A stretch of 63,770 nt of DNA, counting the filler, from Folioceros fuciformis (lineage: Eukaryota), in assembly GCA_049999805.1 (NCBI GenBank). It is 20 parts of 20 records of this genome, joined end to end, with 100 filler letters (N's around TTAATTAATTAA, not from the genome) between each part and the next. Parts side by side here need not be neighbours in the genome. Positions count along the whole stretch, not along the records: positions 34,391 to 40,465 come from JBNGIO010002357.1; 19 more parts are not named here. One strand, given 5' to 3'. The position numbers and the translations under genes were made by a program. Shown here piece after piece: positions 16,483 through 63,307 of this stretch (its first letter is position 1; the number at the start of each line of letters is the position of its first letter). Under the pieces are notes generated by a model. It was not told the origin of the DNA, did not search any database, and saw only the letters and a program-made list of their open reading frames with translations.

Positions 16483-16929
16483 TGTGAACCTCCAAAGTTT
16501 GGGGTAGTAGTTTGTTTTGGTTGAAAAAGGGTTAATACTGGTATGGTTTGGTTTTCTTTTTCAACTTATTTTCCCTAATTTCCTTGATTTTCTGGTCATT
16601 TTTCCTATTTTTCTGTGTGTTAATTAGGTTAATTGACCAGGAAATAGTTGGTTTGGTTATAAGAGTGGGTATAGGTTTGGTCCCAGAGCTGGGAAGGTTT
16701 AGGTTCGGTACCAGGCCATAGGGTTGGGTGATTAGTTTAATATTAATTAAAGATATATAATTAGTAAATGATTAAATAATAATAAAATAATAAAAATAAT
16801 AAAAATAATATAATAATGGTTTGAACATAGGAAGGGGTATCTGGGTGTGTCAGGGTCTGACGATAGACTGGCTGATTGCTTGGCTGGCATGAACGGCTGT
16901 GGAGGCCATGCCCTAGCTAGAGCTAGAGG
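16483..16929 (+). mobile_element. LTR terminus, type A, inserted into the type B ORF
   Basis: TGTGAACCTCCAAAG start shared with 48596, 56872 and 63308. Interrupts the ORF at KRKAG. Confidence 0.85.
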
Positions 16930-22541: not shown

Positions 22542-23810
22542 TCACACCGATGCCAGCCAATCGGGTTCGAACGGAAAGCGGACCAACTGGTACGCCCAAC
22601 CTTGACCGAGGTAGGGCCCGAACAGCAAGCGCTCCCAAGTGTCTTGACCAAAATTATACACAGCCATTTGCAGGGAGCCAACAAAGATCCTGGAAAAGAA
22701 GAGGCGCTCCTTGTCCGCGACACACATGAAGCTATCCCCACAAGGCCCGCACACCTCGAACGGCATCTCGGCCAGCAGATCCCAGTCCAGCGCCTGCGAA
22801 GCGGGATCCCATTTGAACACCGAGATGTGCTTGAGGTTAGCGGGCATCTCATCACGCTCGAGCACAAACAGCAGATGGCCCTCCCAGTCCAGGACGTTGG
22901 TCACGGACTGGGCGCGCTCCCGAGGAATGATCCTGGGGCTGGCATCCCATTGCCTCCTCCGCACGTCGTAGCTCATGATGCCGCAATTTCCCGCCGCGTC
23001 CATCCCCAGGCAGTAGAGGATGCCATTGCAGTAGGCGCTGCTGCACTTAACCAAGGGGTGCAGCGGGGGCCGTCCCGCCACAGCCCACACGTTCTCCGAG
23101 GACTCGAACACATGCGTGCGCTGCTCGTCATCGTCGTCCACCACCACAATCCAGTACCTGTTGCGGGCCTTGTCAGGGATGAGGCGCAGCAGGCTGTACT
23201 CCTTCACCAGAAAGCCATACTCCTCCGGAAAATCCACGGGCACGGGGCTATGCAGCGTGTCGGGGAGCTCCCGCACCTGCCCCGAGAGCGGATTGCACAC
23301 AACGTGCAGCATCCGCTTCTCCCTGCTCACGTAGGTGAAGAGCAACAATCCCCCTGCCCCGGTGACGCTAACGTGGCCCAGAGTGTGCGGGAAGCGCGGG
23401 GGCGGCGGCAGCTTCTGCCACCTCCTGTGCACGAAGTCGTAGGCCACCGAGTCCCTCCTCCCCAGCTCCACCCTCCTCCCCCCGGGCAGCCTCGGCCCAG
23501 CCCCCCGGTCAGGCCCCTCGTCCACGTCCGCCCCTAAGACCTCGTCTGCCCGCAGCAGCACAAACAGCCCCAGATACCTGTTTTGCACCGAACGCTCCGC
23601 GAACATGGATCGGAACTCCTGCGACAGGAAGCACGAGTTCCACCTCTTGCACAGCGTTCGCGCTTGAAAGAGGCGAGACAGCGGCAGGCGCGCTATCACC
23701 CTGTCTATCAGCGGCTCCGGCAGCTCGCTCCACCTCTCCCCGCGCCGCCCGCCCCACCTCTGCTCCATCTCTTGTGCCTTCCCCGCCTCCATGTCCTCAC
23801 CAATTCCCAT
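22542..23810 (-). CDS. F-box protein with C-terminal kelch/FBA-like beta-propeller (intronless)
   Basis: F-box WSELPEPLIDRVIARLPLSRLFQARTLCKRWN, plus GAGGLL, VCNPLS and CNGILY. First in-frame ATG at 23810; the frame stays open to 24005. Confidence 0.9.
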   Translation of the reverse strand: MGIGEDMEAGKAQEMEQRWGGRRGERWSELPEPLIDRVIARLPLSRLFQARTLCKRWNSCFLSQEFRSMFAERSVQNRYLGLFVLLRADEVLGADVDEGPDRGAGPRLPGGRRVELGRRDSVAYDFVHRRWQKLPPPPRFPHTLGHVSVTGAGGLLLFTYVSREKRMLHVVCNPLSGQVRELPDTLHSPVPVDFPEEYGFLVKEYSLLRLIPDKARNRYWIVVVDDDDEQRTHVFESSENVWAVAGRPPLHPLVKCSSAYCNGILYCLGMDAAGNCGIMSYDVRRRQWDASPRIIPRERAQSVTNVLDWEGHLLFVLERDEMPANLKHISVFKWDPASQALDWDLLAEMPFEVCGPCGDSFMCVADKERLFFSRIFVGSLQMAVYNFGQDTWERLLFGPYLGQGWAYQLVRFPFEPDWLASV

Positions 23811-24442
23811 TCCCTTGGCCCCTGCGCAAGCGCAAGCGGAAGCCCAAGCCCAAGCCCCAGCCACGGCGAAGGAGCCAGCCCAGCCCACAGGAGGAGGGAA
23901 GTGGCATTCTGTACACCTGTCCGCTCCGAAACGGCCCCCGTAACGCAGCGACGCAGCCGCAGCCGCAGGCCAGGTACCGCCTACCAAGGACCCTCCTGAG
24001 GACACGGGAAGGAAAAACTCGGTCAGGAGTTAGGACGGCCTCTGCCTCTGCCCTCCAAACTTGCTTTTTTACGCTGCCTCACTTCGTCTAGCTGCAACTG
24101 ATCACACCCCTGAAGTAACCAACAACCAGTGGGCGGACGGCCCACGGGATAAAATAACACTATGTATTTACCTGGAACCGACTCCGTATTCCTTCAATCT
24201 CGGGAAGATCCCTTCGGCACTGCAGTCGTGTATCCACCTGCACCCGCGGGCCTGCGGCTGGGGCTGGCCTAATATTCTTCTCACACACACTGTACATGCC
24301 TCTTTTTCCTCTTGAGCCGTCCTTTAACCACGTACATTACCCTTTCCCTGCGTACACTACACACCTACGTACACACATTCACACACTCTTAGGTCTAAGT
24401 GCACTTTTCCAATAGAGAAACATGGGAGCTGCCACAACTGTC

Positions 24443-30778: not shown

Positions 30779-33700
30779 TTTGGGATCACCTTGGACTGCA
30801 ACATGGTAGGGGCTGAAGCAGCAAATGTGGAAGGATAGGCTGTTGGAGTTGCTGAAGGGAAGGGCCAGGAAAAAGCCTCCCATGCCAAGAGGGGTGTGAA
30901 GGAAGGTGAGATGAGGGAAGGGGGCTGTGACCCAAGGTCTGAAGGGCCTGCTGGTGAGGATACAGAGGTCACTAGATTCACCTCTGAAGACCTATTCAGG
31001 GCATGGGGAATGAGGGAGGAAGATCCCCGAAAGCTGGAAGAAGGGTTTGGAGTCAGCTTTGCACCTGTGGAGCGTGAATGGGTGGAGGCTGATGAAATTA
31101 AGGATGTGGAGGTGTTGCCGGGCAAGGTGCTGAAGTTTTCCAAACAGCTAGATGCCAAATTGGAGGAGGGAATAAAGCAACTCCTGGCTGAGTTCATCGA
31201 TGTGTTTGCCTTTGAGGTGACGGACGTGAAGGGAATTCCCAAAGAGTGGGGGGAGCACAAGATCGACTTGGAGCCAGGCACTGTCCTCGTTCAAATTCCA
31301 CAGTACAAGATGAATCCAAAATACTCCATGAAGGTAAAGGAACAGCTGGAGCAGTACTTGAAGGCAGATGTGATTTTTCAGATTGTGAACTCAGATTGGG
31401 TGGCCCCAATCGTGGTGGTGCCCAAGAAACAGCCGGGGAAGATCCGGGTGTGCCAGGATTGGAGAAGGTTGAACAAAGCCACCAAGAAGGATCATTTCCC
31501 CTTGCCATTCATTGACAACATTCAGGATTTGGTGGCTGGCCGCATGATTTACTCCTTTTTGGATGGCTATTCTGGTTACAATCAGCTGTCCCTAAGGGAG
31601 AGTGACTGGCCATTGACAGCCTTCACAACTGATTGGGGGACATTCGCCTACAAGAGGAGTGCTTTTGGGCTGACAGGAGCACCGGGGCCCTTTATGCGTA
31701 GCATGTACAAGATCTTCAAGGATTTCCTCCACAAGTTCCTAGAGGTGTTCATAGATGATTTTTGTGTGTCTGGAGGGGTGGAGTAGCATCTGGAGCACCT
31801 AAGGCTGTGCTTGGCCAGGTGCCGTGAGACGCAGCTTTGTTTGCATTCGGAGAAATGCTATTTTGGCATGGTTGAAGGGATCTTGCTAGGTCATAGAATT
31901 TCAGCACGGGGCATTGAAGTGGACCCGGACAAGGTGAAGGTGATTGCTGCCTTGAGGGCCCCACACTCAAGGAGCTGCGTGGATTCCTTGGGATGGTAGG
32001 ATACTACCGCTGGTTCGTGCCAAATTTTGCTAGACGAGCTGCCCCTTTAACGAGCCTATTGAGGAAGGAGCAATCTTGGGAGTGGACAGCGGTGAGGGAG
32101 GCTGCGTTTCAGGACTTGAGGACCACTCTTGTGACAGCACCAACACTTAAGGGGCCTGATTGGGACAAGAAATTCCATGTGTACGTGGATGTTTCAGCCT
32201 TTGCCATTGGGACAGTCCTTAGCCAACGGGATGAGAAGGGGAGGGACTACCCAATCTACTATGCTGGACGTCAAGTTACGGAGGTTGAACGCAAGTACAC
32301 CACAACCGAGAGGGAGGCACTTGGCATGGTCTACTCTTGTCGTAAATTCCGCCACTACCTCCTCTCCTATGAGTTTGTCTTCCATGTTGATCATTTTGCT
32401 CTCAAGCACTTGGTCAACAAGGCAGACCTATCGGGCCACATAGCTCGCTGGATCTTGCTCTTGTAGGAGTTCACATTCACCGTGGAAACAAGGGAAGGGC
32501 ACAGGCATGTGGATGCTGATTTTCTATCCAGGCTGAAAATAGAGAAGGTGGTTCAGGACCAAGAAGATGATTTTCTGGATGAGGCATTTTTAGCAGACCT
32601 AGTGGAGAAGGAGAGGGCCAAACCAAATGTTAGGTTGCCAAGAGGTGAAGGTACAGCACCAAATGAGAAGGGGAGAAGAGGGCTCCGTAAGCCTTCCTAC
32701 CAAGAGGTGTCTGATTTTTTAGGCACGGGGGAATTTCCAGTTGATCTCACACGGCAGCAGCAGCGGCTGTTCTTGTACTTCACAAGGCTGGTGGTTAAGT
32801 ACAAGGGCAGGCTGTATCGCACAGGGGCTGATGGCGTGGAGAGGTTGTGGGTCAAACTTGGCCAAGTAGAGCAAGTTATCAGCTCCCTACATGAGGGAGA
32901 GGCTGGAGGCCATTATGCAGCCCATGTGACCTGCAGAAAAATTCTGGTAGCAGGGTATTGGTGGCCAACAATGCATGCTGATGCTGGAGAATTCATCAAG
33001 AGGTGTGATGCATGCCAAAGGGTGGGGAAGCCTACTAGGACCACACAATGGCCATTGGTCCCCATCCTAGCCCTAGCACCATTTGAGAAGTAGGGGATTG
33101 ATTTTGTAGGACCAATTCAGCCCAAGCCCAAGGGAAGGCAGAACCAATACATCCTGGTGGCAACTAACTACTGCACACGCATGGTGGAGGCCCAAGCTTT
33201 GCCCGTGGACACAACAAATGTGGTGGCCCAATTTTTGTTTGAGCAAATCATCACAAGGTATGGGTGCCCGTTGGAGCTGGTGAGTGATAGGGGGACTCAC
33301 TTCATCAATGAAGTGGTCAAGCACATGACTGAATACTTCAATATCAATCATAGGAAGACCACTCCCTACAACCCTGAGGCCAATGGACTCACGGAGAAGG
33401 CTAACGGGCTGTTGTGCAAGATTCTCAGCAAACTCACCGTCACCTATGCTCATAACTGGGATAGGAAACTCCATGCAGCCTTGTGGGCGTATAGGACTGC
33501 TGAGAAGGTTACTACCCAGTAGACCCCTTATCACCTCACCTATGGACACTCACCGGTCATGCCCATCGAATTTGAGGTACCCACCTTGAGAATGCAGGAG
33601 AGCAACCGATTGCATGTGGAGGAGAGACAGTTGGAGAGGTTGACCAGTTTTTTGCAGCATGATGAGGACAAGGGACAGGCGATGGCTGTTTTCCTTGATG

Positions 33701-33945
33701 TCCAAGAGAGGAGGAAGAAGTGGCATGACCAGAGGTTGCGTAAACAAGAGTATGTTGTGCCTGGAGATTTAGCCTTGCTATATGACAATAGGTACATGCA
33801 CTTTCCAGGTAAGCTTCATTTGAGATGGATGGGACCTTACAGGGTGCTGCAGGTGTATGAGAATGGGTCCATTCAACTGCAGCACCTCAACGGCCCTAAC
33901 TTGCCAACCAGGGTTAATGGCTGGCGTGTGAAGAAGTATTATTAG
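30779..33945 (+). mobile_element. Ty3/gypsy pol (RT-RNase H-integrase), non-chromovirus type, decayed
   Basis: KDHFPLPFID, FLDGYSGYNQ, FIDDF, YVDVSAFAIG, CDACQR, LVSDRGTHF and GPY. Ends VNGWRVKKYY with no chromodomain. Stops and one frameshift. Confidence 0.95.
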
Positions 33946-33964
33946 TAGTTGGTGAGGACGCCAA

Positions 33965-34290
33965 CAAATGAGAAGGGGAGTATGTGGACTCCACATGCTG
34001 AACAGACCCCTGGGAAATGATGGGTTCTCTTTTTTTTTGGATCTGTGAGTGAGTGTTGTAAAGGAAAGGTTAGAAGATTCGGTTAGATTAGAGTTAGATT
34101 AGAGTTAGGGTTAGGATTAGGTCGGACTTAGGTTTAGGAATTTGACAAGTGGAGGGTTCTGTCTAAGGTGTGCTAACTTGGTTAGGCAGTGACAGGGGTT
34201 CCGGGCCAAGGGAGTATAAGAGGCCAGGCCTGTTATTGAGGGGGGAGGTTTTTTTGGTGAGAGCTCCCTTGACCTTGTGTGCAGGCTGCT
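33965..34290 (+). mobile_element. Polypurine tract and 3' LTR start (type D)
   Basis: CAAATGAGAAGGGGAG-TA, then TGTGGACTCCACA at 33983. TTAG(G/A) array at about 34068-34138. TATAAGAG at 34215. Confidence 0.9.
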
Positions 34291-35313
34291 NNNNNNNNNN
34301 NNNNNNNNNNNNNNNNNNNNNNNNNNNNNNNNNNTTAATTAATTAANNNNNNNNNNNNNNNNNNNNNNNNNNNNNNNNNNNNNNNNNNNNGTTATGTAAG
34401 AGTCTACCGGAGGTCAACCTCCTCCAGACTTACATCGATCCCCACTTTCCTTTTCTAAACCGGGCACCTTCCCTTCCCTCTTACCACGAGGGTCCGCTGG
34501 CTTTGAGAAGTAAATACATGAGAAGGCGCTGCTGTTCTCTAAGATTAGATTAGTGTTCGAAGGGAATAATATATTGCCCAATTCTTATATGCCTCATGAT
34601 GGATGGGGTAGATGGGTTTCTCTTGTTTTTTTATCTACATACCTATCTTTCATATTTTTACATAATGCAAGATAATAAAGTAAAATTTTTCTACTTAGGA
34701 AATAAGATGGGATATTATCTACCCCAAATGAGGTGAGACAAACTACCAAAGGTGATGGGTCATCGAGGGCTATTGCTTAAAGCCACTAAGCCTAAAAACT
34801 ATCCACAACACTCAAGACATCGTGATCTTGGAGGAGGAAGGGTCACTAAGCCTAAAAAGTATCAACAACTCAAGACATCAAGATCTAGGAGGAGAAAGGA
34901 CTATATGTGACATTAGCCAATGCCCATGCACAATGCAACGGAAAACCTATTTTTTTGTGAAAAAAAAAAATCAAATTCATACAACCTGAGGCTGACAAGG
35001 GTTACAAAGGGGACACAAAGATGCCACTAGCGCTATATCTCACCACCCATGAACCCCATGACAAAGAACCACTTGTCTTGTGCAATCTCCCAAACAATCT
35101 CTCACGGTGATCTTGTTTGAGAGGTGAATCGCCCTCCTCAAATACACATATATAGCCTTAAGTTCCACCCATGTTCTGATACTATATGGCGATCAACTAA
35201 CTATTTCAAACATAGCTATATACATAATATAGATAACTATTCCTATCTAAAACAAACATTACACTTAAAAAAATATGTCAATGCATAGGTGTAAACTCTG
35301 ACCTTTGCTTCGC

Positions 35314-35395
35314 TGTCACTTGTATGATAGTAAGGACAAAGGGTGTTCTAAGATGTCACTTGTATGATAGTAAGGACAAAGGGTGTTCTAAGATG
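35314..35395. repeat. Exact 40-bp tandem duplication
   Basis: TGTCACTTGTATGATAGTAAGGACAAAGGGTGTTCTAAGA x2. An imperfect duplication of about 60 bp also lies at about 34783-34900. Confidence 0.9.
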
Positions 35396-35399
35396 CCAT

Positions 35400-36250
35400 G
35401 ACTAAGCCCATCTCCGAGGCATGTCACAAATTGCAATGTCTCCTAGCTGTCACTTTCACGACAATTGTTGTGTGAGCTGATTATTGAATTGCTTAGTGCT
35501 GCTTGGCCTGTTTGAGATCGCCGTTTGTTGTCCTCCCATGGCCGGCACACACTCCTACCAAGAATCATGTGCATGGTTAAGCAATAGAGAACAAGTAGAC
35601 AATAAGGCATGCAGAGAGGGGGGAAGGTGAGGCGGAGCACATACCTGTGTTGCCTATCAATGAGCAATGTTTCCAGCAACGCATGCTCTTGTTATTCGCC
35701 CAACAACAAGGCATCTCCTAAACATTTCGGGCGTTTGGATCTTGGAATCCATGTGCGTGGTTTAGAGGCGAGGACACCTTCAACCGAGGCGCTTGTGCTG
35801 GCCTCATCGTCGATGACAACCCATTCAATTGACGATTGGTTTCTACTAGAATCACCTTATGTCGCGGGTGGGACATTTGTCGACCGAGCTTGCAAATCCA
35901 TGGTATTTGCTTGAAGCGGCTTGTAAGTAGAAGAGGGTAGTTCAACCTCACCAAGTTTGGTGGGGTGGATGGAATCAACATTCGTTATGAAAGGGACCTT
36001 GGTGTAGGTTCCTACGAGCTCTTCTGGCATTGAAGCAATAACAACATCCATGAATGCGTCTTCTCCTATGATTTACGAGCAAGCTATTTGAGGGTCGTTG
36101 TGACATTCCATCGGTTGTATGGAATGCAGGTAGGTTGTGCATGCCAGGCACAATAGGAGCAATGTTATAGGGCACTGCCCAGGGAAAAACTCATGTTTGT
36201 TGAGCCTTGAGAGTTGTCTTCATGCTATTTTCCTCTGGTTGGTAATTTTT
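35400..36250 (-). mobile_element. Highly degraded retroelement pol-like remnant
   Basis: Only faint RT/RNase H-like peptides in broken frames. Confidence 0.3.
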
Positions 36251-36516
36251 TTGCTCTAGCCTCATTAATGAGGTGACGTGTGTCTCCACCTCCCCTTTTA
36301 GTTTCCTAATAAGCGTGCATTTGGTTCATTCCAACATAGTTGCCATATTCACATCCCTCCTTTGTCGGCCACCAACCATGCATGTTTTTGAAGCTATCCA
36401 TCCACCCTTGCTTTCCTCCTTTCCCCCATGGATTTGGGCCTAATCCCCCATTTTTTTAGTAGCGTGCATTGCACAGCTAGAGCTGCCTTTGATGGCAGAA
36501 AATTTCCATGCTAGCA

Positions 36517-39500
36517 TGTGGGGGAAAATATTGCACCCAGGGGTGTTGCGAGGTCCACACAAGCCGACTTATGCCTTCTGACAGGCGGGACCTGCTTCAG
36601 TCCCCTCTTCCTCCCTTTCCCTCTCACACGGCTCACACCTTCACGCTCATTCACGATTGCTCACTGCTTTTCACAGGACTCGAGAGCGCGTGGTTCATAC
36701 ATACCTACCCTTACCAACGCTCAGCCTGCGACCGGCACTAGCTCCTTCCATTCCCTCTAGAAATCCCTTATGCTCACGGCGCACGACGGCGTCCCCACAC
36801 ACGCACACACATCCACGACCCCTCAATCAGCCAATGCACTCTCATTCATGGTCACACCCCACTCGCAACCTCAGGCCAGACTCTCACAACTACTCACGCG
36901 TCCTTGTGCTTCAGGCTCACACACATACAGTCGTCTCTCCCCTCACGGCATCTCATCTCCGAACATAGTCATGTCCAGCTTTCGCCACCCGCTTCACTTT
37001 GATTACTCTCTGGTCAGCCACGATCACCTCGCCACAACACCACACACCCGCCATTCCGGCTCCACCACCCCTCAGCTTAGCTTCCTACACACCCCAAGCT
37101 CACACATCCAGTCACCCCAATCATTTGGTCACACAACTTCTTCCTCCTACCATCACCACTCTTGTGACCCATGTCCACTCACGGTCTTCACAACATAAGT
37201 CACTCAGCACCGCATTCTTTCTTCACCAACACACATTCATCAGCGCTCTTACTCATACACTCTCATTTCTCAATCCAACCATGACTCTTAGCACTCTTCT
37301 CCAACTCGCCCGTCCAGGGCCTCTCTCTCCTCTGAAATGGTAAGGATGGTGGGTCACCGGAGGCTAAGGGAAGGGGTATCCACTTCCACTCCAGACTCGC
37401 GGATTCGGCCTCCGGCCCCTTTACCACCCCATGCAACCGACACGGGAATAGCTGGGGAGCTCGTCTCCCACTCGAGGAAGTCTCTCCTCCCGATTCGTCC
37501 CTGGGTCCTGGTTACGGAGCATCCACCACCTGCACCCACACCCTTAGAGCACTACATGCGCTTGCTTGCCTGGACCTCCTGTCCAGCAACGGCCATCGCT
37601 AGGCTTCCACAAGGTCGGAATGTCGGGATGGTGTCTTGCTGATTTTTCCGAGGCCCCAAATTGGCCTCTTGTACACAGTAGTGGCGGTCTTCCCGCCGTA
37701 AAGTCTGTCAAGGGTCAGTCAGCGCTCTTAAATGCTGAGCGGCTTAGGTCCAAGCAACAACAATCTAAAAAAAACTAGTCTAGACTGTAATTACTATTGC
37801 CTCCTTCTTTGCTGCTAGCGCCTTCCTCCTGGCCGTCGCGCTCCTCCCCCTACTGGTCCGCCTTTGGCCCTCCTACCCCGCCGCTGGTTAGGCAGGTCCT
37901 CTCACAAGACCTCCACCTCATTGTTGCTATTGCTGGCCCTTGCTGGCGGCGACGCAGGTGGGTCCCGTTGCAGGAAATCCCTCTCCTCCCTCTGTCGCCG
38001 ATTACTGAGGATGAGGACAGGCTCCCGTTCAACCCACTGCTGTGCCTCCTCCTCTGTCAATTCCTCCAGGACTGCCTTAGAATAGCAATGAGGCAGACCC
38101 CACACCCGCCTGCGGTAGTAGTAGATGCCCATGCGGGTCCTCAGTTGTAGGCCGTAGCCTCGCGTCCCTTCTATGCCCATACGTACATACAAAAACAGCT
38201 TCAGAACTCGGGCTCCTTCCACATAGAGGCCCAACACATAAGAGGCCTCCTCCTCATAATGCACCATAATCAGACCCTCTGTCATAAAGAAGGTGCTTAC
38301 TCCTTCCTCCCTTGGGCTACCTCGGGCTGCCTGTCCCCTGCTCTCCTGGGGTACGTGAGGGTCCTCCATCCCTCCAGCTGCTGCTTCCCCCAGCTCAGTT
38401 TGCCTGGTGTGAGTCGACCTTCTGGAACGCCTAGGCACAGGCACCTCCGCCCTCACCTCTTCGGCTACCGGATTCGTGGTTTCAACTATCGGCGTCGTTC
38501 CTCCTCCATCGATAGCCCCTTCGGCTACTTCGGGTGTCGTGAGACTACCGGTAGCCCTGTCGGTGACCGGCACTGTTGTTCGGCTACCGGTAGTCATGTC
38601 AGCTACTAGTTCGGGGACTCGACTACCGGTAGCCCCTTCGGCTACCGGCGTCGCCGTCCAACTACTGCGCCCAGCCTTGCTTTTCCCTTTTATTCGCTCC
38701 CTGGCCTCGTCCTGCTCCCGTTTGTACCTGTCCGCCAGCTTCTGAACTTGTTCCATCGCGGCCATCTCCTGCTCCTGAGCCTTAGCCACCTCCTGCTGTA
38801 TCTCCAAATTAGTCTCATGGGCTACCCTCACCTGAGTTAGGAGCGATTTCTATTGCTCCACCAGCGCCTGGATCTCTGCCTTGGCCTGTCGCGCCTCTTC
38901 TTCTACTTGTGCTTTGCCCTCGCTCAAGACCCATTGTTCTTCTTTCAGGAGCTGTCGTGCCGCCTCAGACTTTGCCAGCTGTCTCCAAGCTTCTGACTCC
39001 TTTCCACTTGCCTCTGCCTCCCTCCTTCAGGCCTCGGCCTCCTTCTCTGCTTGCCTGCTCAGCCAGGTGCCCTGGCCACCTGGTCTAATACATCCGCTTG
39101 TGCCTGCACCACGGCTGAGGTTAGTTCTGGCAGATTCACCTCCTGTGACCCAACCGGAGCCATTCCCCTCTAGGTTATCCGCCTTCCCAGCAGCGCTCGT
39201 AACGTCTCCAACTCCTCTGTCTGCAGCCTATCCTCCTGAGGAATTTTTCTAAAAATATCTTTCCATTCTGGGAAAACGTCCTGCTCCGGAACGTGCCCTA
39301 ATTCACTCCTCTCCTCAGGAGGGGCCATTTCCCTCGCTGGCATCTGCTCCCGGGGTGCTTCCATTTCTTCTCCGTTCGGTTCCTGCTCTGTCAGCTCTTG
39401 GTGTGCTTGTTCCTGAACAACTCCTTGCTCCCCCTCAGATCGTTCTAGGACTATCCCTTGTGACGCTGGCCTGCTCCCTTTTCCAACAATCTGACCACTG

Positions 39501-39730
39501 ACCCGTCTCCTCTTGGCGGGAGTCTTTTTCCTTGACCCGGCCTTCCTCTTCTGCCTGGTGGGGGTCCTCTCCTCTGAACTATTCGCACCCCCCGACTCCC
39601 AGCTGCTCGAGTCGGCTCCTATTGGTTCGGCGGGCTTCCACTTTACGTCCCTTATCGGCCTCCACATATGCAGCGAGGCTAGCACTTCCAACTCGGACAC
39701 GAGATTAGTGTAGCCATAGATATGAATGAG
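36517..39730 (-). mobile_element. Type B element: most of the accessory ORF through to an LTR 3' terminus
   Basis: ORF about 39730 to 37775 with basic NLS-like KRKAGSRKKTPAKRRR, coiled coil and C-terminal domain. Terminus ...CCCCACA at 36517 is homologous to 48021. Confidence 0.85.
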
Positions 39731-40465
39731 TGTGGAGGCAAAACCCCGGGCACTGATTGCCAACGGGTTCCACCTTTAGTGGCCACACTTATCCCACTGT
39801 CGTTGAGACATTGGGTTTCGTTCCCACGAAGGAGCGATGGGGTTCCTTGCTGCTGTGGATGGAGGGTCGGACTTGATCGACTCGATGATGGATTCGAGGG
39901 CTCCCCTCTAGCTCCGATCAGGCGTAGAACAGGCCTCGCTGTCCAGCGGTCAGCTGCACCTCTCTCGGTGCCCACAAACTCACTCCAGTCACTACAACGA
40001 CTCTAACCTCTCAAATCTGCGACTTCCCTCACACACTTCACTCACTCTCTCACTCCAGCACCAACACCAGCAACTAACAATGACACCACTACCTTCTACA
40101 CTTCCCTACTGACTCCTCCTACTCGGCAAGAGTCACTAGACTAACCCCAAAGGAAAGAAAGAAGGAACACACTCCCCTCTTGGATATCTCCCCCCACAAC
40201 CTTACCAGACGCCATGAGACATGGCCGGCCTACAACACTTGACCAAGCAAGGAACAAGAGTGGACAGGTCGAGAGAAAGACACATCCTTTACAATCAAGA
40301 GCTAGGGGCAAGCCCCTACACCCTGGTCATTACACCTTGTGATCCTACCAAACACTATACAGCCGGCAACACACGGCTTGCGATCCTACCGGACGTTGCA
40401 CAGCCGGCAACACACTGTAGGTCCTAAACCAAGCAGGGACAGACCACAAGAGCTCATGAAGAGAG
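39731..40465 (-). mobile_element. LTR 3' end, type C, inserted into the type B ORF
   Basis: TGTGGAGGCAAAACCCC on the + strand; near-identical to 45503-46174 and 60919-61698. Confidence 0.88.
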
Positions 40466-44167: not shown

Positions 44168-45402
44168 TGTGGACTCCACATGCTGAACAAACCCCTGGGA
44201 AATGATAGGTTTTCTTTTTTTTGGGATTTGTGAGTGAGTGTTGTAGAGGAAAGGTTGGAAGGTTAGGTTAGAATAGTAGCTTAGAGTGAGGGTGAGTCGA
44301 TAGGGTAGGTAGGTTGTGTGGTGGATAGGACGTGGGCTCTGGTTCCTAGGCCAAGGGTAAGTAGGCTGAGGGTAGCCGGATGAGGAACGGGCCGGCTGTT
44401 TGGCTAGCCACACTGGACGGCTGACTTGACCTGGGCGAGGCCGGGAAGTGGCGGCTGAGGCAGAAGGTATAGGAGATCGACTGGTTGATCTAGCCAGGCT
44501 AGTTGGTAGATCCAGTTGGGCGGCCAGGCAGCTGGCTGGCCGAGGGAGGAGTAGGCAGCAGCCATGTAGGCGACCTCGCTGCTGACAGGCCGCATGGCCA
44601 GACCCAGGCCGGGGTCCGGGCTGGAGCTGCGAGGCAATCAGCCGAGTAGGCCGCCGGAGCGCTGGAGGGGGCAAGGTAGGCAGCTAGGTGGAGTTGCTGG
44701 AACCCAACCAGCAGTCCACCCCGGGCTGATGGGAGGCAATCCTGCAGGTCCAGGCTTTAGGCTGGTTGGTGGATCCAGCTAGGCTGGACAATAGACCAGG
44801 CTAGAGCTCAGAACAGGCCAAGGAGGCTGGGGGCCTGGCTGGCTAGCCGGGTTTGGACCAGCAGCCCGACGACCAGGAGCGGCTGGGTTGGCCGAAGCTG
44901 GATGACTGGGGAGTCCACAGAGGCAGAGCAGCCAAGCTAAGTCCAGGCAAAAGGCAGAAGAAAGGTGACGGGCTGCTGAGGAGTCTCGACAACCGTGAGC
45001 CTGGGACGGATGCATGCGGGCTGGGTAGAATCTAGGCAATGGCCGCCTGGCTGTCATAACCAGGTAGTTGCTGGCCTGCTAGTGGCGTGGTAGGATCCAG
45101 AAGCCGGGCAGTGAGGTGCCTAGCTGGATCGAGAGGTTAGGGCCTCGGGCCTGTCGATCGGGCAGGGCTTGGTGACTAAGGATGTCCTGGCGGGTATGAC
45201 CACAGTTGGAGGGCCAGCAGACAGGGCCGCCAACAGCTAGGCACCCTGGAGGTGGGTCGGCTGGTCGATCCGGAAGGCTGGCTGGCTGGTTGGCTGGCTA
45301 GTTGGCTGGCCGGGTTGGCTGGCGGGCCAGGTGACAAACGGATGCGGCCGCCAACGCCAAGCTAGGACGGGCTGATCGGGCGGCTTGGCTGGTCACAGTT
45401 GG
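44168..45402 (+). mobile_element. Gypsy LTR 5' part, type D, inserted in copia RNase H
   Basis: First ~100 nt nearly identical to 33983 onward, followed by a GC-rich GGCT-repeat region. Confidence 0.88.
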
Positions 45403-45502: not shown

Positions 45503-46174
45503 GTAGGATCGCGGGCAGCGTGTTGCCGGTTGTATAGTGTTTGGTAGGATCACAAGGTGTAATGACCAGGGTGAAGGGGCTTGCCCCTAGCTCTTGATTG
45601 TAAAGGATGTGTCTTTCTCTCGACCTGTCCACTCTTGTTCCTTGCTTGGACAAGAGCTGTAGGCCGGCCATGTCTCATGGCGTCTGGTAAGGTTGTAGGG
45701 GGGGAGATATCCAAGAGAGGAGTGTGTTCCCTTCTTCCTTTTGTTTGGGGTTAGTCTAGTGACTCTTGCCGGGTAGGAGGAGTCAGCAGGGAAGTGTAGA
45801 AGGTAGTGGTGTCGTTGCTGGTTGCTGGTAGTTGCTGGTGTTGGTGCTGGAGTAAGAGAGTGAGTGAGGTGTGTGAGGGAAGACGCAGATCTGAGAGGTT
45901 AGAGTCGTTGTAGTGACTGGAGTGAATTTGTGGGCACCGAGAGAGGTGCAGCTGACCACCGGACAGCGAGGCCTGTCCTACGCCTGATCGGAGCTGGAGG
46001 GGAGCCCTCGAATCCATCATCGAGTCAATCAAGTCCGACCCTCCATCCACAGCAGCAAGGAACCCCATCGCTCCTTCGTGGGAACGAAACCCAATGTCTC
46101 AACGACAGTGGGATAAGTGTGGCCACTAAAGGTGGAATCCGTCGGCAATCAGTGCCCGGGGTTTTGCCTCCACA
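45503..46174 (+). mobile_element. LTR 3' end, type C
   Basis: Ends TTTTGCCTCCACA and abuts the type B ORF tail. Confidence 0.88.
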
Positions 46175-48021
46175 ACCAGCAGCAGCAGCAGCGAGGTGGA
46201 GGTCCTTTGGGAGGACTTGCCTGACCAGCGGTGGGGTAGGAGGGCCAGAGGCGGGCCAGTGAGGGGAGGAGCGCAACGGCCAGGAGGAAGGCGCCAGCAG
46301 CAAAGAGAGAGACAATAACAATTGCAGTCTAGGCTAGTTTTTTCAAGATTGCTTTTGCTCAAAATTTAAGAGTGCTGACTGACCTCTGACAGACTTTATG
46401 GCGGAAGAGACTGCCACTACCGTGTACAAGAGGCCGGTTTGGGGCCTCCAAAAAATCAGCAAAAACCAGCCCAACATTCCAAACTTGCGGAAGCCTAGCG
46501 ATGGCCGTTGCTGGATAGGGAGGTCCAGGCAAGCGAGCACACGTAGTGTTCTGAGGGTGTGGGTGCAGGTGGTGGCCGCTTCGTGGCTGAAGTTTCGGGG
46601 ACGAATCCGGAGGAGCCTCGCCAAGGGGAGAAATGCTCCCCAACTATCCCTGTGACTGTCGCGTAAGAATGGTTAGAGCGAAGGAGGCCAGATTGGAGTG
46701 GAAGTGAAAAATCTTCCCTTAGCCTCTGGAGTTCCTATCGTTCCTTCAATTTCCGAGAGAGGAGAACGCCGAAGTGAGTGAGTTGGAGAAGGAAAGCTGA
46801 GAGACGGCAGGAGAGAGTGCTGGTTGAGAAGAGAAGGCCGAGGTGGCCGAGTCTGAGAGCGAGAAAGTCGGGAAGTGTTGAGCCCTGAATGCGGCAGGGA
46901 GAGGGAATCAGATGTGTCGAGCGTTAGAGGACGAGGTGAAGAGTCAGTGTAGACAAGCGTTGAGGTCCCGAGTCTGTGAGAAGAGGATGTGCGTGGATGC
47001 GAACTGTGAATGGGTGACTAAGTGGTTAAGGTTTGGAAACTGAATGTGAGTAAGAGAGTCGATGTGTGCGTGCGCATGAGTTGAGAGTGGAGTGGAGGAG
47101 TCATAAATCCATGTGGTGAAGGTGTGGCGTCCCAGGGGTGTGGCTGTGGCAGATAAGTGGACGATGGTAGTGCAAGTGGGTGTGAGGAGTCTGATTTGGG
47201 ATCGCGACCGTGGGCATGGGTGAGTCGAGACCGTGCTATTTAGGTTAAGCGCTATGTGTGTGTAAGCATGGAAGCGCTGTCATGTGTGGCTTAGTGTGAG
47301 AATTCGCGACAAAGCTAGAGAAAGGCAGTGACGAGCACTGTGAGTGTGTATTGTATGTGCGTGGCTGAACTGAATGCCAACAGACCCCAAGGCGGGGTGA
47401 GGAGCAGACATGAGCGGACGGAAGGGTGCAACTGTGAGGTAAGCGCGGTTGCAAGTGAGAGAGTTCCATGGCTGATCGTGGCTGCGGGAAGCGCGAGTTA
47501 GGGAATTGAGTTACTTAGAGTGAGAGAAAGAGAGGAAGAAGTAAGTGAGAGAGGGGGAGAGGAAGAAGTTAGTGAGAGAGAGCAAAGAGAGTGAGAGAGG
47601 AGAGTGAGAGAAGAAAGAGAAAGAGTGGGCCCCATTGGGGTAGCCGGTTGGGTGACCATTGTAGAGGGACAACAGGAGTAGCCGAGTGTAGCGGTAGTCG
47701 TGGAGGCGACGAGGTAGCCAAGAAATGGTAGTTGGAGTGACACCCACCCCGGTAGCCGAGTAGGTCCGTCAGGTAGTCCAGGGTCAAGGTAGTTAGGGAG
47801 GTGACGATGGTAGCCGAGTCGCGACGGGGTCGAGGTAGTTGAATAGGAGGTAGACGAGCGGCAGGTGAGTAAGACTGACCTTGGGTGGTAACTAACTTTT
47901 AGCAGCAAACCTGTGTTATTTAACACAACTCATTCCCTTGGGATCAAATCCCAGTGCTATAACGACAAAGAGGGTTTGTGTGGACCTCGCAGCACCCCCG
48001 GGTCCAATATTTAACCCCACA
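46175..48021 (+). mobile_element. Type B element: ORF tail, TTTAAGAG box, conserved block, purine-rich tract and LTR 3' terminus
   Basis: Stop at about 46337, TTTAAGAG at 46365, terminus TAACCCCACA at 48021. Confidence 0.82.
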
Positions 48022-48123
48022 GCAAGTCTTGATTCTGATGAAGATGCAAATTCTCAAGGTCATGTGACCTCCTCCAAGAACGCACGCACACGACGTAGTC
48101 GTGTCCTCTAATCACCTATAACA

Positions 48124-48595
48124 ATGGCTGGATGGGACGACGAAGAGGAACCCGGCATCAATTTTGACATGGAAAAAGAGAGACAACCTTAGATCAAATC
48201 CGATACAGACTCGGAAACTAAACAAACTGTGGTTCATAATTATGGTGACAGCTTCCAAGCGAAGGATAGATTCTACGGCAAAGACTATGACGTATGGCGT
48301 CTGAAAATGAAAGGAGCTTTGCGCAATTGGAACTTGTGGGAGATTGTCTATGAAGATGTGGAGTGCCATGTTCGGGAAATTGACGGCAAACGTACCTAGG
48401 ATGCCAAGGAAAAGAAGGCCCAAGACCTCCTCATCAATGCACTCACACAACACAATATAACGATACGACAAATCTCTGAGGGATATGTGGATCTCCAAGG
48501 ATATGTGGATCCGCTTTGCTCAATTATATTCCTCCAAGGATCATGTCATGAGCTTGCTAGCGGCTTCCCTCAATTTCTATAACCTCAAGATGAAG
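48124..48595 (+). mobile_element. Copia gag fragment
   Basis: KDRFYGKDYDVWRLKMKGALRNWNLWEIV resembles the gag at 42025. Confidence 0.75.
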
Positions 48596-48919
48596 TGTGA
48601 ACCTCCAAAGTTTTGGGTAGTAGTTTGTTTTGGTTGAAAAAGGGTTAATAGTGGTATGGTTTGGTTTTCTTTTTCAACTTATTTTCCCTAATTTTCCTTT
48701 ATTTTCTGGTCATTTTTCCTATTTTTATTTGTGCTAATTAGGTTAATTGACCAGGAAATAGTTGGTTTGGTTATAAGAGGGGGTATAGGTTTGGTCCCAG
48801 ACCTGGGAAGGTTTAGGTTCAGTACCAGGCCATAGGGTTGGGAAAGTTTGAGTCTAGGTCTGGTTATTAGTTTAATATTAATTAAAGATATATATTATTA
48901 AATAATTAAATAATAATAT
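48596..48919 (+). mobile_element. LTR terminus, type A
   Basis: TGTGAACCTCCAAAG start; interrupts the gag fragment. Confidence 0.85.
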
Positions 48920-49019: not shown

Positions 49020-51371
49020 TGACCCACACACACACGCCCAGCGCTCGGACCTTACCAAGCCCCCTTACTTCTCCCCCAGACGACCCCTCAACCACACGGT
49101 CGCCCCAGGGGCTGCCCTTCGTTCCCCAATGGACTACTACCGTCACTTTTCGGGCTGCCCCCGTCGCCTGGCGGCCTACCGCTCATGGGTCCCACTCTCT
49201 CTCTCTCTCTCTCTCAGTTCCCTCTCTCTAGGATTTTCTCTCCCACTGGGTCGTTCCTACCCGACTGATTACCTCCTGCCCGCGTATCCCCTTTGGCGCT
49301 TCCCTTCCTTGGTTCACCACAAAATCGCCTCACTCACCTCAGAAACAAGCGCACGCACACATGAACAGCAGCCATCTGTTAGACGCCTTCCACCCGCGTG
49401 ATCTCACACCTTAGATACACCTCCTGCGGTCTCAATTCAGCTTCTTCACAGCCTCTCCAGTCTCATCGCGACCACTCACTCATAGACACCCCATCTCGTT
49501 GCACCCCACACACATTACCCACCTCGCCTCCGGGGTCTCCCCGGCTTTGTTCTCTCTTACCCCACTCACCAGTTCTCTGTATACATTCTGCCCATCTCAA
49601 CAGTCGTCGAATCACTTCCCCCCCGCTTCACTCCCTGCTCCACTCCTTCCGGCCTCCTTTTCGCATTCGCTCTTACCCACTACTCGGCCACTCGCTCCTC
49701 CTCCTTCTCACACACGCGCACTCCCGCGCTCTCCTTTCTCCGATTCTTCAGTCTTCTTTCTCAGCGATGCCCCCTCCTGGACTCCTATTAACGTTGAGAA
49801 ATGGTGAGGTACCGGAGCTAAGGGAAGAGGAGTCCCTTCCACTCCGCACTCGCGGATTCGGCCCCGACACCCTCACCACCCCACGTGACCACCTCGAGGA
49901 TAGCTGGGGAGCTTCTCTCCCACTCGGCGAGGCTCCTCCTCCCGATTCGTCCCCGGACTTGATCACGTAGCGCCCACCACCTACACTCGCACCCTTGGTT
50001 GCTACGTGCGCTCGCTTGCCTGGACCTCCTGTCCAGCAACGGCCATCGCTAGGTCCCTGCAAGGTCGACTGTTCGGCTGGTTCTTGCTGATTTCTTAGGC
50101 CTTCAAACCGACCTCTTGTACACGGTGATGGCGGTTTTTTTCCGCCATAAAGGCAGGGGAGCTGCGCTCTTAAATTCTGAGCGATTTAGGTCCAAATAAA
50201 GCACGCTAAAAAAATCCTATTCTAGCCTGCATTTACTATCGCCCTTTCCCAAGCCGCTGGGTGGTTCCTCCTGTCCTTCGCGTGTCACCCCTTGCTGCCC
50301 CTCCTCTCGCTCTTCTGCCCCTCCGTTGGTCCGGCAGATCCTCCCAGAGGATCTCCACATCACTGCTGCTGCTGCTGGACCTGGCTGGCGGCGCAGGTGG
50401 GTCCCGCTGCTGTGGTCCACCACTCCTCCTCCTTCTCTGGTTGTTGAGGACAGCCACAGGCCCCCGTTCTACTTAGCGCTGGGCCTACTCTTCCGTCAGT
50501 TCCTCCAGAACTGCCTCCGCATAGCAGTGGGGTAGTCTTGTCAACCACCAGCTGTAGTGGTAGAGTCCCAGGCGCGTCCTCAACTGTGACGTAGCCCCGC
50601 GTCCCTCCTGTGCTCATATGTACATATAGAAACAGCTTCAGAACTCTGGTCCTTTCTACATACAGGCCTGGCACATAGGAGGCCTCGTCCTCATACTGCA
50701 GCACAATCCAACCTTCTGTCATAACAGAGGTGCTTACCCCGTCCTCCCTTGGGCTACCTCGGGTTGCCTGCTCAACCCTCACGCCCTGCGCCGTCTGTCC
50801 CGTCGTCCTGGCGCTTTCTCCTTCTTCAGCCACTTCACGCTTCAAGTTACTCCCGCTCCCCGCGCTTTCGGATGCTCGACAAAGCTCCCCCTTTCTCTAG
50901 GGTTTTTATGCCTTGCCTGCTTTCTCTCCTTACCGCCCATCGGGCTACCACCAGTCCTCCCTACCTACAGACCTGGTCCTTAATGTTCTCAATGACCCGA
51001 GGGCCAAGGAGGCACTCGCTCATTCCCCTTCCTTGTCCAGGTCTCCAGTACACCCCAAACCCCGAAGCCCAAGAGGGACTTTGGGCATGAACACCCTGGT
51101 CTTATTTACCTACTAAGCCGATTCGCTTGTCCTTTCACAAAAAAAATCACAACCTGCTCATTCCGTCGCTCAAAATGGGAGTTTCAAAAGTTTTTTTTCG
51201 TTCACACTAGGCCCGAACAGATCCACCCTCTGGCCCGGCGTGGCTGCCTGCCTCTGCCCACGCTTGCTCGTGCTTGCCCGCGGTGCAGCCCCGCTGCCCC
51301 ATTCTGCCCGTGTCTGCCCGCCCTGCCTGTGCCAGCTCGCGGTACTGCACCGCTGCCCCATGTTGCCCGCG
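49020..51371 (-). mobile_element. Type B element with internally deleted accessory ORF
   Basis: Promoter-like ATAAAAACCCTAG (about 50897-50909) lies only about 150 nt from the C-terminal domain. Downstream part near-identical to 9250-10980. Confidence 0.8.
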
Positions 51372-56576: not shown

Positions 56577-56871
56577 CGCTACACTTGTAGCCTTGAGAAA
56601 GCATAAATGAGTGGAACTTGTAATACCACTCCTTGGGTGCCTGTTTCAAACCATAAAGGCTCTTCTTTAACCTGCACACCATATTCTCTTTGCCCTTCTC
56701 AATAAAACCCTCTAGTTGCTGCATGTATACCTCTTCCTGGAGATCACCATGCAGAGATGCCGACTTCACATCCATCTGGACAAGTTCCATGTCATTCCTC
56801 GCAACTAGAGCAAGAACACATCGCAAGGTGGTCATTTTGACAACTGGTGAGAAAATCTCATCAAAGTCAAT
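56577..56871 (-). mobile_element. Copia RT fragment
   Basis: FSPVVKMTT, QMDVKSA and LYGLKQAP. Confidence 0.9.
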
Positions 56872-57681
56872 TGTGAACCTCCAAAGTTTGGGGTAGCAGT
56901 TTGTTTTGGTTGAAAAAGGGTTAATAGTGGTATGGTTTGGTTTTCTTTTTCTACTTCTTTCTCCTATTTTTTATTATTTTCTGGTCAGTTTTCCTATTTT
57001 TCTTTGTGCTAATTAGGTCAATTGACTAGGAAATAATTGGTTTGGTTATTAAAGTGGGTGCAGGTCTGGTCCCAGACCTGGGAAAGTTTAGGTCTGGTAC
57101 CAGGCCATAGGGTTGGAAAAGTTTGAGTCTAGGTCTGGTGATTAGTTTAATATTAATTAAAGATATATAATATTAAATGATTAAATAATATAGAATAAAT
57201 ATAAAATAATAAAATAATGGTCTGAACATAGGAACGGGAATATGTGGCGTATGTCAGTGTCAGGGGCCAGGGTCTGATGTCAGGCTGGTTGATTGCCTGG
57301 CTGGCCTGAACGGTCATGGAGGCCGTGCCCTAGCTAGGGCTAGAGGCAGGGGTTGCGGCTGCCCCCATCCCCCTCCCCCTTTCTCCCTTTCTCCCTTCCT
57401 CTTCCATTCCCTTCTTGTCCCGCTTCCTCTTCTTCCCCTTCCCTCTCCATCTCTTTGTCCTGCTTCTTCTTTTGGATCCACATTGCAGGTAGACCGGGTG
57501 ATGGGACTGAGGGCAAGCACAGAAGGAGCATGAGGCGAGCTGGAGGATTTGGCTGATGCAGGGCTAGGCCTGCCTCCATCTTCTCCCTGATTTCTTTCCC
57601 GTTCCCCTCCTACCCTGTCCCGATTTCCTCCCCAATCTACAGCCCCGCTGCTAGATCTGCCTTGCTCCCGCTGCTGTCTTG
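56872..57681 (+). mobile_element. LTR terminus, type A (longest copy)
   Basis: TGTGAACCTCCAAAG start, AT-rich block, then pyrimidine-rich tract. Confidence 0.85.
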
Positions 57682-57961: not shown

Positions 57962-59119
57962 GCTCTAATACCATGTCGTTTATGAACAGCGATTAGGATT
58001 GCATTAAGCGCACGACCGTGCTAGGAAAGATACACGACGCTAGAGTGCAAACAAGTGAACTAGCATTCAAGCGACGTTCGCGTGGTGCTCACGAGACATG
58101 GCAGTTACTAACGACTAACCGTCGTTCGTAGCTCTAGGATAGAATATGTATATATATATTTAAATTTAACCTAACTACATTGAAGCTTGTGGGAAATTGC
58201 TAATAGACTGTTGGGCATTTGCGGATATTGCTAGAGCAGTGAAGACACCTGGGGGACAGACCTGTGAGGAATAGGTGTACACTAGAGTTCTGGTGTGTTT
58301 TGCATGTGTGGAGAGTGTTGCATGTGCGTGTGGGGGGGAGTGTGGCTGATCTGTGGGGACTTGTTTCCCGAGGGTTGGCATGTGCATGTGTGAGGAGCAC
58401 TTAATAAGATCCGACTTGGCAGTCGGGAAGCCCATGGGCAAAAACCCGTGATGGAAACCCGCAGCGACACATGTGCTGGAAACTATTAGTTAGGGTTTTG
58501 GGTGGGACCCACCACGGTCGTGGAGACCAATGTCAGTCGTGGGACCAGTGACCGCGGTCGTAGAGTAGGGACCAGAGTCTTAGAGTAGGGTCCGCAGTAG
58601 TTAGGCTAACTGGGGGTAGTGGTAGGAAGCTAGCACGTAGTAGAAGCAGTAGTGGATGAGGTCCTGAGCTAGGTCAGAGTCGGTAGTAGAAGAAACTTAT
58701 GTTACTTGGTACAAATCATTCTCTTGGGAGCGAATCTCATGGCTACAACAACATAGAGGGTTTGTGTGGGCCTCGCGATGCCCTCAGACACAACATTTCA
58801 CTCCACAATCGGATCACATGATCTTGCACATTGCGCACACGTACACGTCAACCGGATTTCTAATTAGATAATACAAGCTTACAACTACAACGGACAGCAC
58901 TTAGCTAGGCTTTTATGCCTGCTACTCAAGACCTGCTGCAGCCACATCCACACATCTAGTTGTGTGTCTATCTAGTTGACTTTCTATTATATTATATTTT
59001 CTAATAATCTTCAATAAATAGTTATTAATTACCAATAACACTATTTATTAGCATCACTTAATTATTAACTAATTCCTATTTGCATGCATGTAAGTGACAA
59101 CACACAATCATGCTTGACA
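57962..59119 (-). mobile_element. Copia-type 5' LTR and PBS, with a nested gypsy LTR piece (about 58188-58807)
   Basis: GCTCTAATACCA at 57962-57973. LTR start TGTCAAGCATGATT resembles the LTR at 14926. The nested piece ends ...CACTCCACA with the shared 3' motif. Confidence 0.65.
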
Positions 59120-63226: not shown

Positions 63227-63307
63227 CACACCACCGTAGCCTCCCTGCTCGAAGCATGACTCGAGCCGGAGCCAGACTCAAGCTGCTTCCCCTCCACCTT
63301 GTCCCTG

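Follow-up and report, generated by a model that had tools for sequence, protein, structure and literature searches.

Can a plant long terminal repeat (LTR) retrotransposon carry a large gene within its terminal repeat? The question is raised by an open reading frame (ORF) in the genome of Folioceros fuciformis (assembly GCA_049999805.1), which lies in a 63,770-nucleotide stretch of DNA that we analysed as a whole and refer to as the window. A first reading of this sequence, here called the original prediction, had placed the ORF and its downstream region (36517–39730) in the U3 region of a gypsy-type LTR. The window joins 20 contigs of 1.3–8.2 kb each through spacers of N44, 12 nt and N44, and the focal ORF is found in contig 34391-40465; contigs are designated below by their window positions. 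We find that the ORF is a true accessory gene, orphan and by now decayed, that belongs to a repeat family, and that it appears to be the only gene in a mid-copy unit of ~4.5–5 kb. We tentatively favour the view that it forms the internal region of a non-autonomous, LTR-retrotransposon-like element.

Pieces of the ORF are present in five contigs (15118-, 34391-, 9250-, 49020- and 45503-), as had been claimed and as translations bore out, and they represent at least two subfamilies. The pieces are listed here together with the downstream box, block, tail and terminus that accompany them.
37793 to 39730, minus strand: ORF remnant in contig 34391-40465, ending in a double stop TAG TAA at 37796-37791; other copies are 68–78% identical.
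15751 to 16482, plus strand: N-terminal stretch of the ORF, which opens with a candidate ATG and reaches the region of the nuclear localization signal (NLS), with three in-frame TAG codons; cut at 16482 by the unrelated LTR start Y.
9250 to 12042, minus strand: second-subfamily copy, from the acidic region to the C-domain, with box (10373-10380), block and tail; the contig ends short of the terminus.
49020 to 50779, minus strand: C-domain-only copy, 90% identical to the 9250 copy, with box (50167-50174), block and tail.
46175 to 48021, plus strand: copy with the last ~47 ORF codons, cut by repeat X at 46174, with box (46365), block, tail and terminus (48021).

The remnant at 37793–39730 comprises a basic NLS-like stretch, an acidic region, an E/K/Q-rich coiled-coil-like part, a Pro/Thr linker, a C-domain and an R/G-rich tail, the NLS and coiled-coil labels being read from composition. 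The ORF is extended upstream by contig 15118-, in which 16288–16483 is 85% identical to 39730–39535, and the composite protein, counted from the candidate ATG at 15751, amounts to ~830 codons, shorter than the ~900 amino acids first estimated. All copies are broken; that in contig 34391-40465 has six premature stops and at least one frameshift. The ORF frame was nonetheless formerly under purifying selection. The ratio of nonsynonymous to synonymous substitution rates (dN/dS) between subfamilies, a comparison that the original prediction had called for, is 0.11 over 63 codons of the coil and 0.40 over 126 codons of the C-domain, as against 1.04 and 3.7 (coil) and 0.62 and 0.89 (C-domain) when the same alignments are read out of frame.

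Homology searches leave the protein an orphan. With X placed at the three TAG codons, the N-domain gave a sub-threshold Pfam match to Transposase_32 (PF20167; E=0.0018, profile positions 4–169 of 177), while PF03078 (ATHILA ORF-1) was not among its matches at E≤10. The remaining ORF parts matched no Pfam family above threshold, the plant mobile domain (PF10536) was absent from the matches of all ORF pieces at E≤10, and gag families gave no match at E≤0.01 in the Pfam scan of the window or at E≤10 with the ORF pieces. The role as trans-activator or anti-silencing factor put forward in the original prediction finds no support in these scans. Word-indexed protein searches with a 315-residue C-terminal part (near lengths) and with the N-domain (near and longer lengths) returned no homologue, a full HMMER scan of 1.84 billion representative proteins with the C-terminal part returned 0 matches, its best feature score in the ESM Atlas was 0.79, under the lead level, and metagenome scans with conserved words of the window returned no match. 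An AlphaFold model of the N-domain, again with X at the three stops, was unusable at a predicted local distance difference test (pLDDT) score of 36.5. The C-domain, modelled from a three-row alignment at a pLDDT of 54.5, is predicted to form a beta-meander, for which Foldseek found no match in the PDB at E≤0.001 and template modelling (TM) scores of at most 0.28; neither model was good enough for comparison with known families. As a conserved ORF distinct from gag and pol, the gene is of the kind termed an additional ORF (aORF), the retroelement nature of its carrier being read from the termini described next.

Downstream of the ORF, the alignment of copies reveals a constant order of features, which we list for the focal contig together with a further terminal copy and the flank of the unit.
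37725 to 37732, minus strand: TTTAAGAG box, 58 nt past the double stop, with a T-run before the box.
37346 to 37724, minus strand: conserved non-coding block, 80–82% identical between subfamilies.
36566 to 37345, minus strand: variable G/purine-rich tract, with a degenerate TATA/telobox-like motif at ~36773 and a 25-nt polypurine run at 36625-36601.
36517 to 36565, minus strand: terminal motif ...CCACA, the 3' terminus of the unit, 88% identical to 47973-48021.
58693 to 58807, plus strand: divergent third terminal copy, ending ...CTCCACA, with 75% identity over 115 nt.
34391 to 36516, no strand assigned: flank of the unit at single-copy depth (summed depth 6–29), with no Pfam domain in its ORFs.

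Read on the minus strand, the order is ORF end, stop, T-run, box, block, variable tract and ...CCACA motif, the stop being a double TAG TAA except in one copy, which has a single TAA. The TTTAAGAG sequence occurs at exactly the four places reported originally, 10373(-), 37725(-), 46365(+) and 50167(-). Chance predicts 2.17 matches, and four or more were reached in 16 of 100 shuffles; the four sites are meaningful despite this rate because they fall in the same column of the four-copy alignment, that is, at homologous positions. The distance from stop to box is 58–61 nt in three copies and 46 nt in one, so that the 27–42 nt first given has to be corrected to 46–61 nt. The block that follows, put originally at ~400 nt, measures ~380 nt (355–377 nt aligned); with 9–13 gap blocks between subfamilies and no codon periodicity, it is non-coding. 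Past the block, the tract described earlier as purine-rich has a purine fraction of 0.64–0.70 (0.50 for the window) and cannot be aligned between subfamilies. The terminal pattern has two matches in the window where 0.01 are expected, namely the ...CCACA ends already noted at 36517 and 48021, and the divergent third copy ends at 58807; the three termini abut three unrelated flanks.

Contigs assembled from public sequencing runs (low-coverage DNA of one sample, 213–323 million letters of contigs per run, flank depth ~8–12) allowed the terminus to be placed against its surroundings. Left of 36517 the flank has a depth of 6–29, the terminal bin has a depth of 320–527, and one run contig crosses the junction (35366–36545) without difference. 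Position 36517 is therefore a true insertion edge in unique DNA, and ...CCACA, adjoining single-copy sequence, is a true element terminus. Summed contig depth is unfit for ranking parts of the unit, and ORF/block depth ratios were left unused. The plus strand was also considered as the sense of the terminal region and was ruled out by composition and by the order of T-run and TATA-like box, which matches that of a pol-anchored gypsy LTR in the window.

Several observations concern the surroundings of the terminus. The single-copy flank holds short tandem duplications at 34784–34899 (58 nt twice, 86%) and 35314–35395 (40 nt twice, 100%), the latter with length variants among run contigs. Other run contigs link the unit terminus to positions within the same family (joints 37627/36517 and 38648/36517) and repeat X to a position in the tail (joint 36817/39731), which suggests that other genomic sites carry further nested insertions or copies derived by deletion. 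Directly past the terminus at 48021, 48022–48584 holds a copia leader and an intact-looking gag N-terminus, its ATG ~100 nt after the terminus and with no sequence resembling a primer-binding site (PBS); we read this copia sequence as the target of a nested insertion.

On the 5' side, two contigs reach past the beginning of the ORF and a third holds the outer edge.
15118 to 15750, plus strand: upstream region U, ~630 nt before the ATG, with TATA and telobox at 15441-15455.
50780 to 51207, minus strand: upstream region W/U, joined straight to the C-domain, with a telobox at 50905 and the 5' edge at ~51207.
13490 to 13594, plus strand: second copy of the W 5' edge, 85% identical across 86 nt; the flank upstream of this copy is unrelated.

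Region U is homologous to 51119–50780 on the minus strand (z 8.0 overall, 6.8 and 6.3 for its halves) and precedes the ORF in both contigs that reach its 5' side (15118- and 49020-). The TATA and telobox with which the ORF had been credited are thus present at 15441–15455, and again at 50905(-). Fusion of W/U to the C-domain in contig 49020-51371 implies an internal deletion of ~2 kb. Homology of W between contigs begins at ...TGT... (~51207 and 13490–13588), further upstream the sequences are mutually unrelated, and neither of these two upstream contexts contains pol or has any other match in the window. With one edge upstream of the ORF and another downstream, the sequence constitutes a repeat unit of ~4.5–5 kb whose ends are of the TG...CA type, a 5' TGT... 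edge with two flanks and a 3' ...CCACA end with three. A G-rich tandem repeat of ~60-nt units (76% between units) lies beside the 5' edge in contig 49020-51371, at 51244–51371.

The start coordinate first given for the feature, 39730, is no part of this anatomy. It marks the edge of an insertion, represented in the focal contig by the following feature.
39731 to 40465, minus strand: end of the unrelated, hyper-abundant repeat X (...CCTCCACA), inserted in the ORF, 94% identical to other X copies.
The 735 nt right of 39730 share this identity with 45503–46174 and 60917–61598, and beyond the end of X three contexts are found: the ORF at 39730, the last ~47 ORF codons (contig 45503-) and, in contig 59996-, a region of copia protease. 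The summed depth of X is ~1e5, compared with 8–12 in the flank, and 26 loose ends depart from 39731 in one run, with an agreement of only 0.39. From its three contexts and extreme depth it follows that X is a very abundant element inserted into the ORF. The genome's most abundant LTR probably has X as its end. In a run guessed to be RNA, X is the only part of contig 34391-40465 that is covered, and the contigs of that run also hold X, among them a 5-kb contig that starts with the X end.

Taken together, a tentative model of the element can be drawn. In sense order, it would begin with the TGT... edge and a promoter-like region of ~0.45–0.7 kb carrying TATA and telobox, followed by the ~830-codon ORF. 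Past the ORF would come the T-run, the TTTAAGAG box, the ~380-nt block, the variable G-rich tract and a polypurine run, and then a last segment of ~0.3–0.4 kb that starts with TGGG(A/C)CCCA and ends with ...CCACA. The gene would be an accessory ORF of the Athila-clade kind set between short, promoter-bearing terminal repeats, with the U region and the distal tail as the two putative LTRs and the polypurine run as the plus-strand primer site; box and block would then be a 3' untranslated part rather than the R/U5 of a giant LTR. The protein, with a weakly Transposase_32-like, helical N-domain, NLS-like basic stretch, acidic region, coiled-coil-like part, Pro/Thr linker and beta-rich C-domain, would be nuclear and may aid its own element, for instance by helping to bring the replication complex into the nucleus or to target it to chromatin. 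Reverse transcriptase and integrase would be supplied in trans by an autonomous element with similar ...CCACA ends.

Two kinds of evidence from the tails are consistent with such terminal repeats. In three of the five tails, polypurine runs of 20–35 nt are followed at once by TGGG(A/C)CCCA, although no polypurine tract (PPT) with a TG boundary had originally been seen between stop and terminus. In the 9250 copy a 35-nt run (9396–9362) precedes TGGGACCCA, and in the 46175–48021 copy, the only complete one, the run at 47606–47625 precedes TGGGCCCCA and stops 396 nt short of the terminus; the fourth tail shows the 25-nt run at 36625–36601, then C and TG, 84 nt before the terminus, and the fifth has no run. 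Furthermore, 15285–15593 of U aligns with 47525–47869 of the distal tail at a score of 67 (null 34–37, z 4.9–6.7), with a core of 46 nt at 78% identity (E=8e-5) and with z ~0 for reversed and reverse-complement controls. This alignment ends ~150 nt before the ATG in U and 152 nt before the terminus in the tail, and a likeness with matching spacing fits an internal ORF set between short terminal repeats. U and the tails also have telobox-type motifs in common, at 15447 and 50905 in the former and at 9417, 9433 and 49236 in the latter, with a degenerate one at 36773, 256 nt from the terminus. All three termini lack a TGG-type PBS after them and both 5' edges lack a purine run or pol before them, which is the look expected of a complete small element. 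The contigs are too short to show the whole unit twice on any one of them, and none includes both ends of a copy, as a view of target-site duplications would require. The resemblance is confined to a stretch of ~310 nt before the ORF and to the distal tail of a single copy. Three further candidates were set aside: a likeness of the terminal motif to the surroundings of the ATG, aligned by eye (z<0); an 8-mer common to W and the 45503 tail, taken as a chance match; and a tRNA-type PBS at TGGCCGTTGC, in the block ~135 nt past the box, which has no terminal motif before it and resembles a tRNA end only if an internal 2-nt gap is allowed.

A number of results weigh against this model of a short-LTR element. 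The similarity of U and tail is one strong pair among ~20 comparisons, and its nulls are mononucleotide shuffles of G-rich sequence. The same U (15118) gives z≤1.3 with the other four tails, the U of 49020 gives z 4.3 with the 57782 tail and only 1.1 with the 45503 tail, and, that 4.3 apart, the remaining pairs give z≤2.2. The first ~300 nt of W have no counterpart past the ORF in the five tails (z≤1.0), the terminal motif is undetected upstream of the ATG (z<0), and in contig 49020-51371 the upstream region is unlike the 1.15-kb tail of the same contig (z -0.5), a tail that stops about where the repeat would be expected to begin. No PBS was identified upstream of the ORF. The ORF precedes all four boxes, where an LTR starting at the box would predict flank before half of them, and conservation of the block equals that of the ORF, as one might expect of R/U5 or a leader. 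The summed depth of the C-domain is not below that of the block, a depth that cannot rank parts. The Transposase_32 score of 18.7 bits is far under the Pfam cut-off of 45, and the contigs, built from low-coverage short reads of repeats, may include chimeric joins.

Several of these points are what would be expected if the whole unit, from the TGT... edge to ...CCACA, were one giant LTR of ~4.5–5 kb, seen mostly as solo copies, with the ORF in U3 upstream of the TTTAAGAG TATA box and duplicated with each LTR. Such an LTR would be a single non-repetitive block with TG...CA-like edges, as the unit is with its 5' edge in two contexts and its 3' edge in three; W would not recur past the ORF and the terminal motif would not be found before it, the upstream and downstream regions of contig 49020-51371 would be unlike, all boxes would follow the ORF, and the conserved non-coding block past the box would suit R/U5. 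Yet none of the five unit edges adjoins a PBS, a PPT with internal region, gag or pol, so that LTR status is unproven, and the unit is never seen as a repeat around any other sequence. The stretch from box to terminus, at 1.2–1.7 kb and mostly unalignable between copies, would be unusual for R/U5, and the polypurine/TG junction and the spaced similarity of U and tail are left unexplained. A narrow literature search on ORFs in or within LTRs gave, among the papers listed, no plant LTR case by title or start of abstract, hence a low prior, and we consider a giant LTR unlikely. The U3 placement of the original prediction is accordingly borne out in part: the TG...CA-type edges and the 5' edge upstream of the ORF are as a giant LTR predicts, but repeat, PBS, PPT and pol adjacency are wanting, and, all things weighed, an internal position is likelier than one in the U3 region of a gypsy LTR. 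The label "gypsy-type" has no basis, since the five ORF contigs contain no pol and the region past the ORF stop has no detectable homology to the gypsy LTR start. That LTR start (TGTGGAC...) lies at 33983, past a purine-rich stretch that follows the stop (33943–33948) of a gypsy pol without chromodomain (30839–33945), in agreement with the spacing of ~40 nt claimed earlier; the order of features had been said to start from a TATAAG box, and the TATAAGAG box proved to be 232 nt inside this LTR.

The pol-anchored LTR also bears on a reading that we judge improbable, in which the gene is an ordinary 3' additional ORF, in env-like position, of an autonomous Athila/Tat-type gypsy element whose 3' LTR begins at the ORF stop, U being the spacer between pol and ORF. 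The weak Transposase_32 match and the NLS do resemble the sunflower Athila 3' ORF, PF03078, a related domain, served as an ENV profile in the accessible part of PMC2533021, purine-rich codons and a TG past the stop occur in three of four copies, and the T-run followed by a TATA-like box repeats the order of the pol-anchored gypsy LTR. Against it, the W/U 5' edge is preceded by two unrelated sequences that are not pol, Pfam finds no pol on the five ORF contigs, and none of the gypsy, Y and W LTR starts is homologous to the region past the stop (z≤2.4). The sequence TGTGGAG within the C-terminal codons of the ORF was rejected as an LTR start, since it is found in one subfamily only and within a conserved coding motif. 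Rather less improbable, though still on the doubtful side, is a self-contained repeat of unclear class, that is, a cassette of promoter, ORF and 3' region amplified otherwise (as part of a larger element or by segmental duplication), or else 5'-side contigs that are chimeric. Terminal repeats supported by one pairwise similarity only, the want of a PBS or of pol adjacency, short contigs from low-coverage runs and an ORF without homologue in protein searches all accord with it. The edges, however, are sharp, conserved and of the TG...CA type, with unrelated flanks, the terminal motif has a form common to another LTR-like repeat end in the window, and the run-contig joints at 37627 and 38648 are a sign of nested insertions, all of which is typical of integrase-mediated insertion. 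We thus retain, tentatively, the non-autonomous element with short terminal repeats around an internal ORF.

The remainder of the window is, by Pfam scan, that of a plant genome with many nested retroelements, including several copia reverse transcriptase, gag and integrase fragments and the one gypsy reverse transcriptase–RNase H–integrase region. The start of the gypsy LTR (within 33943–34290) recurs at 44170–45402 and 8778–9149, once within copia RNase H sequence and once in yet another setting. The LTR-like start Y (TGTGAAC...), with TATAAGAG ~175 nt inside, has four copies that are 81–90% identical (16482–16929, 48585–48919, 56861–57356 and 63307–63770), one of which cuts the ORF N-domain and another a copia gag. 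A further ...CCTCCACA end lies at 55346 on the minus strand and is followed directly by a sequence that resembles a slightly degenerate initiator-Met tRNA PBS; this is likely where the 5' LTR meets the internal region in another family that shares the terminal motif. Host genes are represented by a 556-codon open frame with MOT1 domains (molybdate transporter; 3299–4966), an F-box frame (22545–24029) and a leucine-rich repeat fragment (6657–7199). Searches across the window found no tRNA genes and no Rfam families.

Plant LTR retrotransposons carry many extra ORFs, and almost nothing is known of what these do. The ORF described here stands out among them as large, once under purifying selection, endowed by composition with features of a nuclear protein, and apparently the only gene of its carrier. 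A carrier without pol would parallel TR-GAG elements, with an accessory gene at its core in place of gag, and would suggest that this protein is by itself enough for a replication advantage. Were the carrier a giant LTR, plants would have their first example of an LTR-embedded gene and a counterpart of U3-embedded retroviral genes, duplicated at both element ends and left behind in every solo LTR, with a complete gene and its own TATA/telobox promoter upstream of the second promoter-like box of the LTR. As the data stand, we have an orphan transposable element gene, interesting yet ordinary-looking, in a fragmented, repeat-rich assembly.

Among known systems, genes that overlap U3 are familiar from retroviruses, in sag of mouse mammary tumour virus (MMTV) and nef of human immunodeficiency virus (HIV), where the LTRs are proven repeats around gag-pol-env. 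Only as a giant LTR would the present unit be comparable, with a coding region inside the LTR and hence duplicated; unlike in these viruses, no internal region is seen beside the unit. Sense and antisense extra ORFs of plant elements are reviewed in the accessible parts of PMC7264820 and PMC11963269, which place all of them in the internal region. Those parts of PMC11963269 describe Retand elements, in which antisense Transposase_28 ORFs lie between pol and the 3' LTR; these, too, are accessory ORFs of non-chromovirus gypsy elements, placed close to the 3' LTR and credited with a putative role in the nucleus or in DNA binding, but they are antisense and have another domain, whereas the ORF here lies on the same strand as the T-run, TATA-like and ...CA order. 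TR-GAG and other pol-less elements are discussed in portions of PMC13570524. If the element has the short terminal repeats proposed above, it would share with TR-GAG elements and large retrotransposon derivatives (LARD) the short LTRs, a pol-less internal region, one conserved ORF and the need for an autonomous partner, with the differences that the ORF is not GAG by Pfam and that its LTR pair is inferred.

Closer parallels are offered by the extra ORFs of sunflower gypsy elements. Tekay 5' ORFs are described, in the sections of PMC11728184 seen, as having an NLS, helices and disorder, with Tekay 13-2 encoding ~400 amino acids with long disordered proline-rich parts. Like them, the ORF begins right after a promoter-bearing terminal region, combines an NLS with helical segments and low-complexity linkers, and has no relatives outside its lineage; gag-pol follows the Tekay ORF, whereas here non-coding sequence and a terminus follow. 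For Athila, the same sections report a sense ORF downstream of pol, Athila 14 ORF(+), of 487 amino acids with an NLS and a partial Transposase_32 domain (PF20167), a family said there to be related to ATHILA ORF-1 (PF03078), and the accessible part of PMC2533021, in which PF03078 was the ENV profile, notes tRNA-Asp priming in an Athila-clade family. The present ORF departs from the Athila 3' ORF in its sub-threshold Pfam match, in having no pol seen upstream, in its length of ~830 amino acids and in its coiled-coil-like part, Pro/Thr linker and orphan C-domain. It resembles the Athila 3' ORF as a large accessory protein of lineage-specific sequence, with a Transposase_32-like region and a basic NLS-like stretch, encoded just upstream of an LTR-like end.

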